Origin: a virus
Lineage: Duplodnaviria > Heunggongvirae > Uroviricota > Caudoviricetes
Reading direction: 5' to 3' (one strand)
DNA: 15,845 bases
Virus record (IMG/VR): IMGVR_UViG_2609459791_000001
Coordinates: 1-15,845 of that record
The notes below the pieces were generated by a model. It did no database searches. It had not been told where the DNA came from and worked only from the letters and a program-made list of their open reading frames with translations. Both the position numbers and the translations under genes were made by a program. Positions within the stretch are counted from its first letter, which is position 1. Every line of letters starts with the position of its first letter. Below, in pieces: positions 73 to 11,385 of the stretch.

Positions 73-1506
73 ATGAATAAGAAATCGTTATGGAAGCTAA
101 TTCTGATATTAGCGATCCCATGTATTATTGGTTTTATGCCAGCTCCGGCAGGATTAAGCGAACTGGCGTGGGTGCTTTTTGGTATTTACCTGGCGGCCAT
201 TGTGGGGCTGGTTATCAAGCCTTTCCCGGAACCTGTCGTACTGTTAATTGCCGTTGCTGCCTCAATGGTGGTGGTCGGTAACTTATCCGACGGTGCGTTT
301 AAAACCACCGCCGTATTAAGCGGTTACTCTTCAGGTACCACCTGGCTGGTGTTCTCGGCGTTTACCTTAAGCGCCGCATTTGTGACCACCGGTTTAGGTA
401 AACGTATTGCCTATCTGCTGATTGGTAAAATCGGTAACACCACGCTGGGTCTGGGTTACGTTACGGTATTCCTCGATCTGGTACTGGCTCCGGCAACACC
501 GTCTAACACCGCGCGTGCGGGCGGCATTGTGTTACCGATCATCAACAGCGTGGCGGTGGCTTTGGGGTCCGAACCGGAAAAAAGTCCGCGTCGTGTCGGA
601 CATTACCTGATGATGTCCATTTACATGGTCACCAAAACCACCAGCTATATGTTCTTTACCGCAATGGCGGGGAACATTCTGGCGCTGAAAATGATCAACG
701 ACATTCTGCACCTGCAAATTAGCTGGGGTGGATGGGCGCTGGCAGCCGGATTGCCGGGCATCATTATGCTGCTGGTCACCCCGCTGGTGATTTACACCAT
801 GTATCCACCAGAAATTAAGAAGGTGGATAACAAAACCATCGCTAAAGCGGGCCTTGCCGAACTAGGACCGATGAAAATCCGCGAAAAAATGCTGCTCGGT
901 GTCTTTGTGCTGGCGCTGCTGGGCTGGATTTTCAGTAAGTCTCTGGGGGTTGATGAATCCACCGTGGCAATCGTTGTTATGGCAACCATGCTGCTGCTGG
1001 GTATCGTTACCTGGGAAGACGTGGTTAAAAATAAAGGCGGCTGGAATACCTTAATCTGGTACGGCGGTATTATCGGCTTAAGCTCCTTATTATCGAAAGT
1101 TAAATTCTTCGAATGGTTAGCTGAAGTCTTTAAAAATAACCTGGCATTTGATGGTCACGGTAACGTTGCTTTCTTCGTTATTATTTTCCTCAGCATTATC
1201 GTGCGTTATTTCTTCGCTTCCGGTAGTGCCTATATCGTTGCTATGTTACCGGTATTTGCCATGCTGGCGAACGTCTCCGGCGCACCGTTAATGTTAACCG
1301 CGCTGGCACTGTTGTTCTCCAACTCCTATGGCGGCATGGTTACTCACTATGGCGGCGCGGCAGGTCCGGTCATCTTTGGCGTGGGTTATAACGATATTAA
1401 ATCCTGGTGGTTGGTCGGTGCGGTACTGACGATATTAACCTTCCTGGTGCATATCACCCTCGGCGTGTGGTGGTGGAATATGCTGATCGGCTGGAACATG
1501 CTGTAA
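73..1506 (+). CDS. ybhI: Putative inner-membrane anion/carboxylate transporter (DASS-like permease)
   Basis: 477-aa ORF, hydrophobic throughout with many predicted TM segments; position immediately upstream of an aconitase-family gene and ybhC matches the E. coli ybhI-ybhJ-ybhC arrangement next to att-lambda. Confidence 0.85.
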   Translation: MNKKSLWKLILILAIPCIIGFMPAPAGLSELAWVLFGIYLAAIVGLVIKPFPEPVVLLIAVAASMVVVGNLSDGAFKTTAVLSGYSSGTTWLVFSAFTLSAAFVTTGLGKRIAYLLIGKIGNTTLGLGYVTVFLDLVLAPATPSNTARAGGIVLPIINSVAVALGSEPEKSPRRVGHYLMMSIYMVTKTTSYMFFTAMAGNILALKMINDILHLQISWGGWALAAGLPGIIMLLVTPLVIYTMYPPEIKKVDNKTIAKAGLAELGPMKIREKMLLGVFVLALLGWIFSKSLGVDESTVAIVVMATMLLLGIVTWEDVVKNKGGWNTLIWYGGIIGLSSLLSKVKFFEWLAEVFKNNLAFDGHGNVAFFVIIFLSIIVRYFFASGSAYIVAMLPVFAMLANVSGAPLMLTALALLFSNSYGGMVTHYGGAAGPVIFGVGYNDIKSWWLVGAVLTILTFLVHITLGVWWWNMLIGWNML

Positions 1507-1514
1507 ATATACTC

Positions 1515-1628
1515 GTCATACTTCAAGTTGCATGTGCTGCGTTTGCGTTCGCTCACCCCAGTCACTTACTTATGTAAGCTCCTGGGGATTCACTCACTTG
1601 TCGCCTTCCTGCAACTCGAATTATTTAG
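1515..1628. repeat. ERIC (enterobacterial repetitive intergenic consensus) element in the ybhI-ybhJ spacer
   Basis: Contains cgctcaccccagtcacttactt and atgtaagctcctggggattcac, which I recognise as the two halves of the ERIC core (the ERIC2 / ERIC1R primer sequences) in inverted arrangement; flanked by inverted repeat caagttgca / tgcaactcg. Boundaries approximate. Confidence 0.75.
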
Positions 1629-1688
1629 AGTATATCCATTTATTATCTTTCTGCGCACTTCACGGTGCGCAGATATCTGGAGCATTTG

Positions 1689-3950
1689 ATGATCAAGTTA
1701 TCTGAAAAAGGCATGTTTCTCGCCAGTAATAACGAAATAATTGCCGAAGAACATTTCACCGGCGAAATTAAAAAAGAAGAAGCCAAAAAAGGCACTATTG
1801 CCTGGTCTATTCTCTCTTCTCATAATACGTCCGGAAATATGGATAAACTTAAAATTAAGTTTGATTCATTAGCCTCTCACGATATTACCTTTGTTGGTAT
1901 TGTACAGACCGCTAAAGCGTCCGGAATGGAACGTTTCCCGCTGCCGTATGTGCTGACCAACTGCCATAACTCACTCTGCGCCGTCGGCGGCACCATTAAC
2001 GGTGATGACCATGTTTTTGGTTTATCGGCAGCTCAGCGTTATGGCGGTATTTTTGTGCCTCCGCATATTGCGGTCATCCATCAATATATGCGTGAGATGA
2101 TGGCAGGCGGCGGCAAAATGATCCTCGGGTCAGACAGCCACACCCGTTACGGTGCATTAGGGACAATGGCAGTCGGTGAGGGCGGCGGTGAGTTGGTAAA
2201 ACAGCTGCTTAATGACACCTGGGATATCGACTATCCGGGAGTTGTTGCGGTGCATCTGACCGGAAAACCAGCGCCGTATGTGGGGCCGCAGGATGTGGCG
2301 CTGGCTATCATCGGTGCCGTGTTCAAAAACGGCTACGTCAAAAACAAAGTGATGGAATTCGTAGGTCCCGGTGTTGCTGCGCTCTCTACCGATTTCCGTA
2401 ACAGCGTTGACGTTATGACCACTGAAACGACCTGTTTAAGTTCTGTCTGGCAAACCGATGAAGAAGTCCATAACTGGCTGGCGCTGCACGGTCGCGGCCA
2501 GGATTACTGCCAGCTTAACCCTCAACCGATGGCGTACTACGATGGCTGCATCAGCGTTGATTTAAGCGCCATCAAACCAATGATTGCGCTGCCGTTCCAC
2601 CCGAGCAACGTGTATGAAATCGACACACTGAACCAGAACCTGACCGACATTCTGCGTGAGATTGAAATTGAGTCCGAACGCGTGGCGCACGGTAAAGCCA
2701 AACTCTCGCTGCTGGATAAAGTGGAAAATGGTCGCCTGAAAGTGCAGCAGGGGATTATCGCGGGCTGTTCTGGCGGTAACTACGAAAACGTCATCGCGGC
2801 GGCGAATGCACTGCGCGGTCAATCCTGTGGCAATGACACCTTCTCGCTGGCAGTTTACCCGTCATCACAGCCGGTGTTTATGGATCTCGCCAAAAAAGGT
2901 GTGGTAGCAGATTTGATTGGCGCAGGCGCAATCATCAGAACCGCGTTCTGCGGCCCATGCTTTGGCGCGGGCGATACGCCAATCAACAACGGATTAAGTA
3001 TTCGCCACACCACGCGCAACTTCCCGAACCGCGAAGGCTCTAAGCCAGCTAATGGGCAGATGTCAGCGGTGGCGTTGATGGACGCTCGTTCTATCGCTGC
3101 GACTGCGGCAAACGGTGGCTATTTAACCTCTGCCAGCGAACTTGATTGCTGGGACAACGTGCCGGAGTACGCCTTCGATGTAACGCCGTATAAAAACCGT
3201 GTTTATCAGGGCTTTGTGAAAGGGGCAACTCAGCAACCGCTGATTTACGGACCGAACATTAAAGACTGGCCGGAATTGGGTGCGCTGACTGACAATATCG
3301 TCCTGAAAGTGTGCTCGAAGATCCTCGACGAAGTGACCACCACCGACGAACTGATTCCTTCCGGTGAAACCTCTTCTTATCGTTCAAATCCGATTGGTCT
3401 GGCGGAGTTTACCCTGTCACGCCGCGATCCCGGTTATGTTGGCAGAAGTAAAGCGACTGCTGAGCTGGAAAATCAGCGTCTGGCGGGGAATGTCAGCGAG
3501 CTGACAGAGGTGTTTGCGCGCATTAAGCAGATTGCTGGTCAGGAGCATATTGATCCGCTGCAAACTGAAATTGGCAGCATGGTATATGCGGTGAAACCAG
3601 GCGATGGTTCTGCGCGTGAACAGGCGGCGAGCTGCCAGCGTGTGATTGGCGGTCTGGCGAATATTGCCGAAGAGTACGCGACTAAACGCTACCGTTCTAA
3701 CGTCATCAACTGGGGGATGTTACCGCTGCAGATGGCGGAAGTGCCAACCTTTGAAGTGGGGGATTACATTTACATCCCTGGCATTAAAGCGGCGCTGGAT
3801 AATCCGGGTACGACGTTTAAAGGTTATGTGATCCATGAAGATGCGCCGGTAACGGAAATTACGCTCTATATGGAAAGTCTGACTGCTGAAGAGCGCGAGA
3901 TTATCAAGGCGGGTAGTTTGATTAACTTCAATAAAAACCGTCAGATGTAA
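1689..3950 (+). CDS. ybhJ: Aconitase-family hydratase/dehydratase (putative)
   Basis: ORF in track begins at 1665, but ATG at 1689 is preceded by GGAG (1679-1682) and gives 753 aa; contains aconitase-like motifs GSDSHT and CGPCFGAG. Confidence 0.88.
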
Positions 3951-3965
3951 AAAGCGCCATGTGAA

Positions 3966-4172
<207 letters not shown>

Positions 4173-4183
4173 GTTAATTGCTC

Positions 4184-5467
4184 TTACTTCTTCGCCTCTG
4201 CAACCACTTTACTACCCACGCCGCGGTTATTGTATTCCCACATGCGGTTGTAGTTAGTGTCATTCAGATTGCGCTGTATTTCGTCGTTATCATCTACGCT
4301 GCCGGTATTACCCGCAAACGGACGATTAGAGATCACCGCATCGGCCCACGGTTTAGCCGTGTTAAAACCTTCGTTGATGGCGCTATCACGGATCACCACC
4401 TGACCGTTGGTATTGGCATCAACATCCAGCGAGCGGCCCAGTTGCGCCACACCATCACCGAAAGCATTGAAACGGCTGTTTACGGCGAGGAAACCGTAGT
4501 AAATGTTGGACAGCGTAGCCGGTGCAAACACATACGCTTCTTGCTGAGTACGTGAGTTCACCACGCGGAATTCGGTGTTATCGAACACCACTGCGCCGCG
4601 ACCAGAAACGATATCCACATCCCCTTCAATGTAGCTGTTGGTCACCAGCGTACGCGGCTGACGATTCGTTTCCAGACGGTTCTGCACACCGCTGTTGGTG
4701 ACAAAGAAGGTGTTCTGACGACCGAGAATGTTAACGTTGTTAATCTGTACCTGGTCACCATCAGTACGCAGTGCCACCGCCGGATGGTTACCTACATCTA
4801 CGCTATCGCCCAGCGTGTTTTCGATGGTCAGATTTTGCAGTTGCAGGCCATTGTTTTGTGACCAGAAGACCGCAGAGCAGAGAACACCGATACTGTCGCT
4901 GCGTTTGCTCTGGCAGCTATCGTACATATACCACGCTGGTTTACCTGGCATATATTTGCCGCGCGGGTTGACGTCGTGACGCCAGTCGGCAGGGCTCATG
5001 CCACCATCAAGGGAAAGCCCAATCTTCACATCAATCGGTTTTTCACCTGTACCGTACAGAGTAATTCCACCCGGAGCGGCAGGGACATATACCGTTCCCT
5101 GATACTCACCAGGCATCACGGCAATATACTGGCGCTTGTTGGTACGCTTGATAATTGCCGCATCTACCGCCGCCTGAATCGTGGTATGCGTTACACCTTG
5201 AGTGCCCGCCGGGCCGACAACAAAGTCAGGTTGCGCAGGCAGGGTAATCGGGGAAGGATTCCACGCTGCAGCACCTGGTGTCAGGGATGCAAAATAGTGT
5301 TGAGCATCGAAATTCTGCGCTTCTTTTGCCGACAGAATCGGGCGAGAAGAGGTACCAGGCGCGGTTTGATCAGAAGGACGTTGATCGGGCGGAGTTGAGC
5401 TACAGGCGGTCAGCGTCACGCCAAAAGCCAATGCCAGCGCCAGACGGGAAACTGAAAATGTGTTCAC
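4184..5467 (-). CDS. ybhC: Outer-membrane lipoprotein, pectin-methylesterase-like family
   Basis: 427-aa ORF; GTG start at 5467 with GGAG upstream; N-terminal signal peptide with lipobox LTAC; pectinesterase-like segments (AVALRTDGDQ, GDVDIVSGRGAVVFDNTEF); last chromosomal gene before the att core. Confidence 0.85.
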   Translation of the reverse strand: MNTFSVSRLALALAFGVTLTACSSTPPDQRPSDQTAPGTSSRPILSAKEAQNFDAQHYFASLTPGAAAWNPSPITLPAQPDFVVGPAGTQGVTHTTIQAAVDAAIIKRTNKRQYIAVMPGEYQGTVYVPAAPGGITLYGTGEKPIDVKIGLSLDGGMSPADWRHDVNPRGKYMPGKPAWYMYDSCQSKRSDSIGVLCSAVFWSQNNGLQLQNLTIENTLGDSVDVGNHPAVALRTDGDQVQINNVNILGRQNTFFVTNSGVQNRLETNRQPRTLVTNSYIEGDVDIVSGRGAVVFDNTEFRVVNSRTQQEAYVFAPATLSNIYYGFLAVNSRFNAFGDGVAQLGRSLDVDANTNGQVVIRDSAINEGFNTAKPWADAVISNRPFAGNTGSVDDNDEIQRNLNDTNYNRMWEYNNRGVGSKVVAEAKK

Positions 5468-5601: not shown

Positions 5602-6672
5602 TTATTTGATTTCAATTTTGTCCCACTCCCTGCCTCTGTCATCACGATACTGTGATGCCATGGTGTCCGACTTATGCCCGAGAAGATGTTGAGCAAACTT
5701 ATCGCTTATCTGCTTCTCATAGAGTCTTGCAGACAAACTGCGCAACTCGTGAAAGGTAGGCGGATCCCCTTCGAAGGAAAGACCTGATGCTTTTCGTGCG
5801 CGCATAAAATACCTTGATACTGTGCCGGATGAAAGCGGTTCGCGACGAGTAGATGCAATTATGGTTTCTCCGCCAAGAATCTCTTTGCATTTATCAAGTG
5901 TTTCCTTCATTGATATTCCGAGGGCATCAACATGCAATGCTGTTGGGATGGCAATTTTTACGCCTGTTTTGCTTTGCTCGACATAAAGATATCCATCTAC
6001 GATATCAGACCACTTCATTTCGCATAAATCACCAACTCGTTGCCCGGTAACAACAGCCAGTTCCATTGCAAGTCTGAGCCAATATGGTGATGATTCTGCT
6101 GCTTGATAAATTTTCAGGTATTCGTCAGCCGTAAGTCTTGATCTCCTTACCTCTGATTTTGCTGCGCGAGTGGCAGCGACAGGGTTTGTTGTTATATGGC
6201 CTTCAGCTATTGCCTCTCGGAATGCATCGCTCAGTGTTGATCTGATTAACTTGGCTGACGCCGCCTTGCCCTCGTCTATGTATCCATTGAGCATTGCCGC
6301 AATTTCTTTTGTGGTGATGTCTTCAAGTGGAGCATCAGGCAGACCCCTCCTTATTGCTTTAATTTTGCTCATGTAATTTATGAGTGTCTTCTGCTTGATT
6401 CCTCTGCTGGCCAGGATTTTTTCGTAGCGATCAAGCCATGAATGTAACGTAACGGAATTATCACTGTTGATTCTCGCTGTCAGAGGCTTGTGTTTGTGTC
6501 CTGAAAATAACTCAATGTTGGCCTGTATAGCTTCAGTGATTGCGATTCGCCTGTCTCGGCCTAATCCAAACTCTTTACCCGTCCTTGGGTCCCTGTAGCA
6601 GTAATATCCATTGTTTCTTATATAAAGGTTAGGGGGTAAATCCCGGCGCTCATGACTTCGCCTTCTTCCCAT
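5602..6672 (-). CDS. int: Tyrosine integrase, lambda Int type
   Basis: 356-aa ORF; translation (MGRRRSHERRDLPPNLYIRNNGYYCYRDPRTGKEFGLG..., C-terminal ...HELRSLSARLYEKQ...LLGHKSDTMASQYRDDRGREWDKIEIK) matches lambda Int as I remember it, including the catalytic-domain HxxR and Tyr region; adjacent to att. Confidence 0.95.
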   Translation of the reverse strand: MGRRRSHERRDLPPNLYIRNNGYYCYRDPRTGKEFGLGRDRRIAITEAIQANIELFSGHKHKPLTARINSDNSVTLHSWLDRYEKILASRGIKQKTLINYMSKIKAIRRGLPDAPLEDITTKEIAAMLNGYIDEGKAASAKLIRSTLSDAFREAIAEGHITTNPVAATRAAKSEVRRSRLTADEYLKIYQAAESSPYWLRLAMELAVVTGQRVGDLCEMKWSDIVDGYLYVEQSKTGVKIAIPTALHVDALGISMKETLDKCKEILGGETIIASTRREPLSSGTVSRYFMRARKASGLSFEGDPPTFHELRSLSARLYEKQISDKFAQHLLGHKSDTMASQYRDDRGREWDKIEIK

Positions 6673-6868
6673 TTCTGATCCTCTTCAAAAGGCTACCTGT
6701 TACTGGTCGATTTAAGTCAACCTTTACCGCTGATTCGTGGAACAGATATTCTCTTCCATCCTTAACCGGAGGAGGGAATATCCTGCATTCGCGCACCCAT
6801 CGACGAACTGTTTCAAGGCTTCTTGGGCGTCGCTGGCGAGCGTTCCACTCCTGAAGTGTCAAGTACAT
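6650..6868 (-). CDS. xis: Excisionase, lambda Xis type
   Basis: 72-aa ORF MYLTLQEWNARQRRPRSLETVRRWVRECRIFPPPVKDGREYLFHESAVKVDLNRPVTGSLLKRIRNGKKAKS, overlapping the int start by 23 nt as in lambda. Confidence 0.95.
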   Translation of the reverse strand: MYLTLQEWNARQRRPRSLETVRRWVRECRIFPPPVKDGREYLFHESAVKVDLNRPVTGSLLKRIRNGKKAKS

Positions 6869-7084
6869 CGCAAAGTCTCCGCAATTACACGCAAGAAAAA
6901 ACCGCCATCAGGCGGCTTGGTGTTCTTTCAGTTCTTCAATTCGAATATTGGTTACGTCTGCATGTGCTATCTGCGCCCACAGCATCCAGTGGTCATAGCA
7001 GTCGCTGATGTTCTCGGCTTCGATAACTCTGTTGAATGGTTCTCCATTCTATTCACCTGTAACTCGGAAGTGCATTTATCATCG

Positions 7085-7142
7085 CCATAAAACAAAACTC
7101 GCCGTAGCGAGTTCAGATAAAAGAAAACCCGCACTCGGCGGG
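7085..7142 (-). terminator. Tandem rho-independent terminator-like hairpins for leftward transcription, upstream of xis
   Basis: On the minus strand: hairpin cccgccgagtgcggg (7128-7142) followed by a U-rich run, and hairpin actcgctacggcgagt (7097-7112) followed by ttttgtttt. Confidence 0.5.
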
Positions 7143-7164
7143 TTCGCATTCGTTCAAATTGCGT

Positions 7165-7446
7165 TTACTTCTTGGCGTTCTGTTCATCCATATCGATATA
7201 CCATGGGTTGCTTCCCTTGGGCATGTTTAACGACTGCTCGCGATAGTATCTGATGCGCTCCATGAAATACTCGCGTGAGTGCTCAGGTTGCTCTCATGAT
7301 ACCTGCTCAGTGATAACAGGTATGTTAAGGCGCTCTCTGTACTCCATGCCTGATGCTGCAAGGTCAACGTTTACCTTGTTCTGTTTTTCTTTCGATTTCT
7401 CGGCGATGTTATGCCTGACATTGTCAACCCGCCTCCTTCTGAACAT
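7165..7446 (-). pseudogene. ea8.5: ea8.5-like reading frame (282 nt) interrupted by one in-frame TGA at codon 51
   Basis: ATG at 7446 (minus) to TAA at 7165-7167 is a single frame of 94 codons with one internal TGA (7294-7296): MFRRRRVDNVRHNIAEKSKEKQNKVNVDLAASGMEYRERLNIPVITEQVS*EQPEHSREYFMERIRYYREQSLNMPKGSNPWYIDMDEQNAKK. Length and distance from xis match where I remember lambda ea8.5 (93 aa). Identity to lambda Ea8.5 is not verified. Confidence 0.4.
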
Positions 7447-7666
7447 AACGGTTATAAATCAGTCCCTGAGGGCCATAAGGAAGCGGGATGTGCAACTCCT
7501 CTGGTTCAGAAACTATCCATTCCCCGGCCATCTCCGCTGGAGAGGTAATGATAAGTTGTTTGCTAATAAAAGGACCACTCCTCTCAACAACAAGCTTACC
7601 ATCTTCATTAATAAAAGCTTGGATGTCAGGTGTGCTTCCACACTTGGTGATGCAGCGTTTGAACAT
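7424..7666 (-). CDS. Hypothetical small phage protein (80 aa), accessory region beside xis
   Basis: ORF in track 7424-7708; internal ATG at 7666 is preceded by GGGGGA at appropriate spacing, giving MFKRCITKCGSTPDIQAFINEDGKLVVERSGPFISKQ...; overlaps the ea8.5-like start by 23 nt in another frame; co-directional with the 191-aa gene. Confidence 0.5.
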   Translation of the reverse strand: MFKRCITKCGSTPDIQAFINEDGKLVVERSGPFISKQLIITSPAEMAGEWIVSEPEELHIPLPYGPQGLIYNRYVQKEAG

Positions 7667-7792: not shown

Positions 7793-8368
7793 TCACCCAT
7801 CTTGCTGCGGTGCTACTATTGAAAAGTACTCACACCCTTTAGCCCAAATAGTTTTGATAGTTGTCCAACTGACTGGAACCTTGATTTCGATTCTTCCGCT
7901 GCCGTCACAAGTTTCGCAATCATCATCACCAAAGCATTCCGGGCAGCTTATAAACGTAGTTTCTGAAAATTCACCGGATAGCACACCCTTAGCGCCGTTC
8001 TCAGCGGTTAGTTTCTTCGGCACTATAACCCAACCATCCGGAGTTACCGGAGAGTTGCCATTTATATCGAAGTTTGGCTCTGCGTCCTGAACCAGGAGGA
8101 TGTAACCATTCTTGGCAGTATCAAGTTCTAACGCCTCGGTGACGGTACCGAAATAGCGATTACCTAAATCCGCATCACAAGTGCTTACATCAATGGAAAC
8201 CTCCATGCCTTCGATTAATTCTGGCAAGTTGTAAGTTTGGCTTACAGGTTCTGCTCCCAGTGATGCCAGTGCAATTCGTGCCAGTTCCATTTGTTCGCCA
8301 CGAGTAAGCCCGTTTTCAAGCGGATTTTTAATGAACAATTCAATACGTTCTTTGGTAATAGTGGTCAT
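7793..8368 (-). CDS. Hypothetical phage protein (191 aa) with C-terminal DnaJ-like CxxCxGxG zinc-finger motif
   Basis: ORF with good SD (AAGGA, 8 nt before ATG at 8368); C-terminal CPECFGDDDCETCDGSG gives two CxxC pairs in CxxCxGxG-type spacing; acidic N-terminal two-thirds. No family recognised from memory. Confidence 0.65.
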   Translation of the reverse strand: MTTITKERIELFIKNPLENGLTRGEQMELARIALASLGAEPVSQTYNLPELIEGMEVSIDVSTCDADLGNRYFGTVTEALELDTAKNGYILLVQDAEPNFDINGNSPVTPDGWVIVPKKLTAENGAKGVLSGEFSETTFISCPECFGDDDCETCDGSGRIEIKVPVSWTTIKTIWAKGCEYFSIVAPQQDG

Positions 8369-10302: not shown

Positions 10303-11385
10303 TTAGAACTGGTAAACCATACCTACAGCAACGATATCATCGGTAGCAACGCCAGATGCTTTCGTGAAATCGCTCTTATCAATCAGGTTGATTTTGTAGT
10401 CAACAAAAGTGGACATATTTTTGTTGAAGTAATAGGTTGCACCTACATCAACATATTCAACCAGGTCCTGATCACCCCAAACACCCAAGTCTTTTCCTTT
10501 AGAATGCAGGTAAGCAACGGATGGACGCAGGCCGAAGTCGAACTGATATTGTGCAACAGCTTCGAAGTTTTGTGCTTTGTTGGCAATATGGTTATTACCA
10601 AAAACAGTCATGTTCTGGGTTTCAGAATAGGTGGTGGCCAGATAGATGTTGTTCGCATCATATTTCAGACCAGCTGCCCATACTTCAGCATTTTGACCAG
10701 AAGCATTCAGACCGTTGTTACCGTAGATAACCTGATTATTAGTGCGATCAGATTTAGCATAGGTTGCACCCACGCCGAATCCTTCATACTCATAAGTAGT
10801 TGAGAAACCGAAACCATCGCCATTAGCTTCAGTTACTTCATTTCGGTCATTTTTGCCCTGATACTGAGCTGCAAAGTTCAGGCCATCAACCAGACCAAAG
10901 AAGTCGTTGTTACGATAAGTTGCAACACCTGTGGTGCGACCAGTCATGAATACATCTGTTTGGGTCCAGGTATCGCCACCGAATTCTGGCAGAACGTCAG
11001 TCCACGCACCGATGTCGTATGCTACACCGTAGTTACGGCCGTAATCGATTGAGCCGTAGTCACCGAATTTCAGGCCTGCAAATGCAAGACGGGTTTTGTC
11101 TTTGGAGGAACCTTGAGATTCAGCGCGGTTGCCTTTGAATTCATATTCCCACTGACCGAAACCAGTCAGTTGATCGTTGATTTGGGTTTCACCTTTGAAG
11201 CCAAGACGGGCATAAGTAGTATCACCATCATCTGCATCATTAGAGGAGAAGTAGTGCTTAGCATTAACTTTCCCGTACAGATCCAGCTTGTTACTGTCTT
11301 TATTATAAATTTCAGCTGCCTGAGCAGACATCGCCATCAGTACTGATGCAGCTACAGCAGAAATTGCCACTGTTAATTTTTTCAT
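10303..11385 (-). CDS. nmpC: Phage-encoded outer-membrane porin, OmpC/OmpF family (Lc / NmpC-like), apparently intact
   Basis: 360-aa ORF with signal peptide [23 protein letters not shown], porin-typical N-terminal AEIYNKD...KLDLYGK and C-terminal ...VAVGMVYQF ending in aromatic residue; located between Q and the lysis genes as in PA-2 and DLP12. Confidence 0.9.

Follow-up and report, generated by a model that had tools for sequence, protein, structure and literature searches.

The locus considered here raises the question of what a lambdoid prophage carries in the position of lambda ea8.5, and whether it is still a working gene. Specifically, a minus-strand frame at 7165-7446 has the place and length of ea8.5 and is interrupted once, by TGA; it could be read as a broken ea8.5, as two small ORFs, as the source of a recoded or truncated but working protein, as a sequencing error, or as the remains of some other gene. 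The window, by which we mean the entire stretch of 15,845 nucleotides that was analysed, begins in chromosomal DNA (73-5467, with Na/sulfate symporter family, aconitase-family and pectinesterase-like genes) and passes into a prophage that starts with lambda-type int (5602-6672) and xis (6650-6868). After xis come an orf55 homologue, the interrupted frame, an 80-aa gene and a 191-aa chimeric ORF, and at about 8461/8462 a deletion or recombination joint brings the exo-xis side straight up against the ninE/ninX side. Past this joint lie ninX (8556), rusA (9146), Q (9716), an opposite-strand porin gene, and genes for a holin, a lysozyme and an Rz-like spanin. Because exo/bet, N, the repressor (immunity) region and the replication genes are all absent from it, the prophage in the window is defective. 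The porin gene (10303-11385, minus strand; 360 aa, Porin_1, E = 3.6e-152) lies between the Q antiterminator and the lysis genes and is prophage-borne cargo.

Identity of the frame in the ea8.5 position

Translation of 7165-7446 yields 94 codons, from ATG to a terminal TAA, with a single internal TGA at codon 51 (7296-7294), in agreement with the first-pass annotation of this DNA, which had described a 282-nt minus-strand frame with exactly one internal stop. By a Poisson estimate the chance of a single stop in 93 random codons is about 7%, which makes the frame only mildly unusual; we count it as real because one Pfam model fits the same frame on both sides of the TGA. This model, PF06440 (DNA_pol3_theta), aligns with residues 12-77 of the conceptual product over profile positions 2-67 of 70 (E = 1.3e-28), and the match, which spans the stop, scores 98.9 bits against a family cut-off of 34.6. 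Likewise, the product matches phrog_1105, 'DNA polymerase III theta subunit' (E = 1.1e-31), and among PDB structures it comes closest to HOT of phage P1 (1se7/2ido, E = 2.7e-29) and theta of E. coli (1du2, E = 5.7e-16). Members of the theta/Hot family, proteins of ~85 residues, bind and stabilise epsilon (DnaQ), the proofreading subunit of the host DNA polymerase III, and P1 HOT is able to replace theta (PMC2528190).

The product of 7165-7446 thus shares its family (PF06440, phrog_1105) with P1 Hot and with the 85-residue theta genes of temperate enterobacterial phages and prophages. It is 70-79% identical to intact 85-residue prophage theta/Hot proteins, but unlike them it is broken, by a frameshift at codon 3 and by a nonsense codon at an invariant Arg. 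It is also homologous to E. coli HolE (theta), a three-helix protein in which the TGA aligns to Arg42 of the EREQPEH motif; whereas HolE comes from a 76-residue chromosomal gene, the frame described here is a diverged, phage-type and inactivated copy. It has neither the unbroken ORF of ~76-87 codons, read from its own Shine-Dalgarno sequence and ATG, that would mark it as a theta/Hot gene, nor the invariant Arg of the xREQPE motif, where a stop codon stands instead. Because of the TGA at codon 51 and an ancestral ATG that is now 1 nt out of frame, we file it as a pseudogene of the family and not as a functional member. It is very probably a decayed prophage copy of a DNA polymerase III theta/Hot gene, and its product would no longer function.

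The likeness to ea8.5 is one of position. When the window is anchored on int (5602-6672 equals lambda 27812-28882), lambda ea8.5 (29374-29655, 282 nt) projects onto 7164-7445, and the supposition that the frame has the position and size of that gene is accurate to within 1 nt. The two share the slot between an ea22-like gene and orf55/xis, their length, their strand and a place in the leftward early operon, and it is this agreement of slot, length and colinear position that would favour reading the frame as an ea8.5 homologue with a nonsense mutation. The sequences, however, show no similarity. The first-pass annotation had named an alignment showing no similarity to Ea8.5 as the result that would overturn its identification, and this is the result obtained: when the conceptual product is compared with lambda Ea8.5 by BLASTP, the match covers 19 residues at E = 7.2. 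In a megablast search of 50,697 phage records, the lambda match is limited to window 6869-7130 (lambda 29079-29340, 95% identity) and stops about 34 nt short of the ea8.5 position. The product matches a different family strongly, and it contains no cysteine, while the zinc-finger part of Ea8.5 needs Cys/His ligands; the fold of lambda Ea8.5 is a hybrid of homeodomain and zinc finger (PMC8614690). Together the megablast, Pfam and BLASTP results effectively rule out homology to ea8.5. Since the lambda match ends at ~7130 and similarity to Ea8.5 is absent, the ea8.5 slot has undergone mosaic replacement, with the frame lying inside the replaced part; such positional replacement is common in lambdoid mosaics, and the relation between the two genes is one of positional analogy only.

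Table 1. Features in and around the theta/Hot pseudogene (positions in the window)
Feature	Position	Strand	Basis
Theta/Hot-family pseudogene	7165..7446	-	PF06440, PDB matches, RefSeq pseudo label; PGAP extent same in identical genomes
Nonsense codon 51 (in-frame TGA) in place of the invariant Arg; C-to-T transition from CGA	7294..7296	-	Alignments with sister alleles and homologues
Ancestral start ATG (7421-7419), then TCA GG-; 1-nt deletion between 7414 and 7413	7413..7421	-	Comparison with L018
Shine-Dalgarno AGGAGG of the ancestral, now out-of-frame ATG	7432..7437	-	10 nt upstream of ATG 7421
Residual 16-codon ORF MSGITSPRNRKKNRTR* from the ancestral start	7371..7421	-	Translation
Upstream 80-aa gene, unknown function, intact	7424..7666	-	phrog_9613, E = 2.6e-50; RefSeq WP_000476264.1, hypothetical protein
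Tandem pair of terminator-like hairpins immediately downstream of the pseudogene	7095..7145	-	Stems 7145-7125 and 7114-7095
Lambda orf55 homologue, broken by TAG at codon 9 (7051-7049)	6908..7075	-	Lambda and four other copies read TGG (Trp)

The surroundings of the frame are listed in Table 1. As the first-pass annotation had noted, the upstream 80-aa gene overlaps the start of the frame, in fact by 23 nt over the ATG; a Pfam search with this gene gave no match. Terminator-like sites number six where 0.7 would be expected, and a third such hairpin (6899-6918, minus strand) follows orf55. The end of the lambda similarity falls inside the first hairpin of the tandem pair, and the mosaic boundary thereby coincides with a terminator. 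The TAG in the orf55 homologue adds a further nonsense mutation close to that of the theta pseudogene, and 28 complete E. coli genomes share its context. An IS66-family element (ISCro1 transposase, TnpB and TnpA; L001:307-2922) lies between the theta pseudogene and orf55 in strain 98-3133, at a point that corresponds to window 7074/7075. On the other side, the 191-aa ORF (7793-8368, minus strand) looks chimeric: its residues 1-45 match Ea22-like N-terminal PHROGs, and the rest carries a CxxCxGxG-type zinc-finger motif and the PGAP name 'molecular chaperone DnaJ'. For an identical genome, PGAP records the ORF in two pieces, a 137-aa CDS and a partial pseudogene.

Two lesions in one reading frame

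The nonsense codon falls at an invariant position. In both protein and DNA alignments with intact phage genes, namely those of the Klebsiella phages KO-TP1, ST846-OXA48phi9.2 and RothC, of HK639, and hot of P1, the TGA stands opposite the xREQPE Arg, which these genes encode as AGA, CGT or CGC. The same column holds Arg in 118 of 118 intact homologues, each of them the representative of one 90%-identity cluster. Codon 51 is CGA in L016 and L021, the closest pair of sister alleles, which shows that the TGA arose from CGA by a C-to-T transition. Hence the expectation that codon 51 is a sense codon elsewhere holds in every relative, but the TGG that had been suggested does not appear: the codon is one for Arg throughout, CGA in the sisters and CGT, AGA or CGC further out. 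In the AlphaFold model of an intact homologue (P0004, pLDDT 82.7), helices span residues 11-31, 38-44 and 47-64. The Arg, at residue 43, precedes the last of them, and the stop would thus, judged from the model, remove helix 3 and the C-terminal tail.

The other lesion lies at the start of the gene. The intact allele L018 begins ATG TCA GGT CAT AAC ATC GCA (MSGHNIA), whereas the window reads ATG TCA GG CAT AAC ATC GCC, and the comparison shows that one base is missing from codon 3. Restoring this base would give an N-terminus of MSGHNIAEKS. The start M-x-x-[H/W/F/Y]-N-I-A is found in nearly all of the 118 intact homologues; 29 of the 118 begin with MSGHN, and 99 are 85 residues long. The ancestral ATG sits 2 nt past the stop of the upstream gene (7426-7424), which is the usual coupled arrangement, and with its Shine-Dalgarno sequence it now encodes only the short ORF listed in Table 1. 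The 93-codon frame is open only because of an in-frame ATG at 7446, 25 nt further upstream and inside the upstream gene, where no Shine-Dalgarno sequence can be recognised. Slippage by -1 from the ancestral ATG was considered and rejected: AAG AAA AAC is no canonical slippery heptamer, and the TGA would still be met. The codon-3 deletion is common to all copies examined (the window, L001-L007, L015, L016, L021 and L022), and we infer that it is older than the TGA. It may have left the gene partly unsilenced, with the frame open to the upstream ATG.

Sister alleles and spread among E. coli prophages

Table 2. Copies of the pseudogene lineage: codon 51 and lesions beyond the codon-3 deletion
Allele	Codon 51	Further lesion
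Window lineage	TGA	The nonsense codon itself
L022 (strain ERP001)	TGA	None; codon 50 still GCA
L021 (355-634, strain VTB97448v)	CGA	2-nt deletion in codons 46-47; PGAP 'frameshifted'
L016 / P0002 (L016:3001-3465)	CGA	1-nt deletion near codon 80; run-on 154-residue product
L015	TGA	Ancestral ATG changed to AGG
L006	TGA	11-nt deletion at the 5' end
L008	TGA	Recombination joint replaces all sequence upstream of ~7420

Over and above the one event that they share, the sub-lineages in Table 2 have undergone several independent disabling events, as is expected if the gene was already dispensable. Since L022 reads GCA-TGA, the change A50S arose later than the stop. The product of L016 is the protein listed at NCBI as a 154-aa 'DNA polymerase III subunit theta', and it is read through the terminators into the next ORF. 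Between the window and L016 there are eight nonsynonymous differences and one synonymous (pN/pS 1.9); among intact genes pN/pS is 0.12-0.33. By a binomial estimate, one synonymous change or fewer in nine would be expected with a probability of ~0.015 if omega were 0.22, but would be unremarkable if evolution were neutral. Of the eight distinct polymorphisms within the TGA lineage, six are nonsynonymous and two are synonymous. Furthermore, at four positions the window has a residue that none of the 118 homologues shows: M in place of V at 34, E in place of A at 35, R in place of K at 37 and S in place of L at 57. These small counts (nine and eight events) suggest that evolution has been near-neutral. 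The alternative of two small ORFs, which the first-pass annotation had entertained, is set aside on similar grounds: both halves belong to one domain, and the substitutions look neutral.

The exact 41-nt context of the TGA is found in 82 of 5426 complete E. coli genomes, at 84 places, all of them chromosomal. The TGA is not confined to one strain, nor is it an error of assembly; with the identical context in 82 independent complete genomes and in one metagenome contig, the chance that it is a sequencing or assembly error in the record, a point that had been flagged for checking, is practically nil. The TCA-CGA version of the same 41-mer, a hypothetical ancestor, has no match in complete E. coli genomes, and the GCA-CGA version occurs in one, which carries a frameshifted allele. 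The TGA allele is far commoner than its CGA sisters, which are known from one complete genome and two draft assemblies. The genes next to it differ among carriers, with excisionase or TorI downstream and Ea22-like, DUF550, DUF551 or Rad52 genes upstream, and these differing neighbours on both sides indicate that the module moves by mosaic recombination. Among the 50,697 phage records, no isolated phage carries the TGA allele at the level of megablast; only relatives of 70-78% identity were found.

Where surroundings could be seen, intact theta/Hot genes (L018 of E. coli, L012 of HK639, L009 of KO-TP1) lie near ninB or NinG of the nin region. Unlike these relatives, the broken lineage occupies the exo-xis region adjoining xis, which indicates that a move to this slot preceded the decay of the gene. 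The 8461/8462 joint, for its part, is present in only one of the 5426 complete genomes (NZ_CM132272.1, strain 20AR0354), and other carriers of the TGA allele retain exo and the remainder of the exo-xis region; the pseudogene therefore predates the large deletion of the prophage in the window. The view that a nonsense mutation reflects gene decay in a defective prophage is supported both by the sense codon in relatives and by the lost block of prophage genes. Its description as recent needs qualifying, as the TGA is present in 82 genomes and in several mosaic contexts.

It is also worth considering how this locus appears in databases. In eight of eight sampled TGA copies, RefSeq PGAP gives the locus as pseudo under the name 'DNA polymerase III subunit theta; internal stop', and the entry BY40_RS11490 (NZ_CP051001.1) is identical to 7165-7446 in sequence and frame coordinates. 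It is thus an ordinary pseudogene that RefSeq has already annotated. The PGAP entry notes the internal stop only, without the codon-3 deletion or the independently broken sister alleles, and what is added here is limited to that older frameshift in the start region and to the series of alleles. Two candidates for an intact allele were rejected: P0001, from a search of 5.8 billion proteins, is 98% identical with W at 51, but the DNA of its contig carries the TGA; P0002 keeps the Arg but has a 3' frameshift. The contig of P0001 is L015:493-774, from an ENA metagenome, where the gene caller evidently read TGA as Trp, and the protein could be mistaken for an intact allele. Likewise, two PHROGs of unknown function, phrog_10131 of 50 aa and phrog_29833 of 52 aa, correspond along their whole length to residues 1-50 and 42-93 respectively, and they appear to have been built from fragments of the broken lineage and not from real proteins. 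These two spurious families and the spurious 'W51' metagenome protein are a caution for users of such databases.

Alternatives and the proposed course of decay

The abundance of the TGA allele, in 82 genomes as compared with one complete genome with CGA, would be explained by selection if the allele encoded a working fragment of 50 residues that kept helix 1 with the greater part of helix 2 and either still bound epsilon or served as a modulator or decoy. Residues 1-50 alone do score above the Pfam cut-off, at 56 bits, and the 50-residue family phrog_10131 matches the fragment from end to end. Nonetheless, we consider such a product improbable. Its sole start would be the ATG at 7446, which has no Shine-Dalgarno sequence, while the good Shine-Dalgarno sequence and its ATG are out of frame; residues absent from the family stand at the near-invariant positions 34, 35 and 37, and the polymorphisms in codons 1-50 are mostly nonsynonymous. 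Helix 3, which is among the best-predicted parts of the fold, would be lost, and the damage at other places in the sister alleles suggests that the gene was already dispensable. Moreover, while selection for the truncated form could explain the excess of TGA over CGA, drift or hitch-hiking could do so equally well. A narrower proposal, in which the fragment has been kept as a prophage-encoded modulator of replication fidelity that engages the host epsilon, is quite improbable; if true, it would account for the ratio of the TGA allele to its CGA sisters in complete E. coli genomes, which is about 80 to 1.

A full-length theta-like protein would still be made if the TGA were recoded, by readthrough with Trp or as selenocysteine. 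The W that the database protein P0001 shows at codon 51 might be taken to favour this, as might the base after the stop, UGA followed by G not being the strongest stop context in E. coli. However, P0001 is an artefact of gene calling, since its DNA carries the TGA as well; the native residue, which is Arg in all of the homologues, would not be regained with Trp or Sec; and the ancestral start is frameshifted besides. For a SECIS-like structure 3' of the UGA, the fold of 7300-7236 gives a z of -1.3, and 16 of 200 shuffled sequences fold as well. An Rfam search up to E = 1 returned only rsmX, at 24 bits where the gathering score is 56; this match is taken as chance, driven by the two terminator hairpins. 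Recoding is very improbable on these grounds.

The reading that we prefer, of a theta/Hot gene in decay, allows a history to be proposed, in which the order of events is our reconstruction. The 1-nt deletion in codon 3 would have come first, parting the body of the gene from its Shine-Dalgarno sequence and ATG, with the ATG at 7446 keeping a 93-codon frame open. Selection would then have been relaxed, and sub-lineages would have gained differing lesions, that of the window lineage being the change from CGA to TGA at the invariant Arg. Further non-conservative substitutions, such as A50S after the stop, would have followed. At most, the old start would give a peptide of 16 residues, or the locus would yield a fragment of 50 residues without helix 3, and neither would be expected to act as theta. 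The allele would persist and spread among the lambdoid prophages of E. coli as a neutral passenger of mosaic recombination.

For annotation, the consequence is that the frame is correctly called a theta/Hot pseudogene and not ea8.5, and it has little importance beyond that. For the lambdoid prophages, the locus marks the exo-xis slot adjoining xis as a swap site, in which unrelated small genes replace ea8.5. Finally, with one shared first lesion followed by several independent second lesions, the lineage provides a small textbook case of the decay of a prophage accessory gene.
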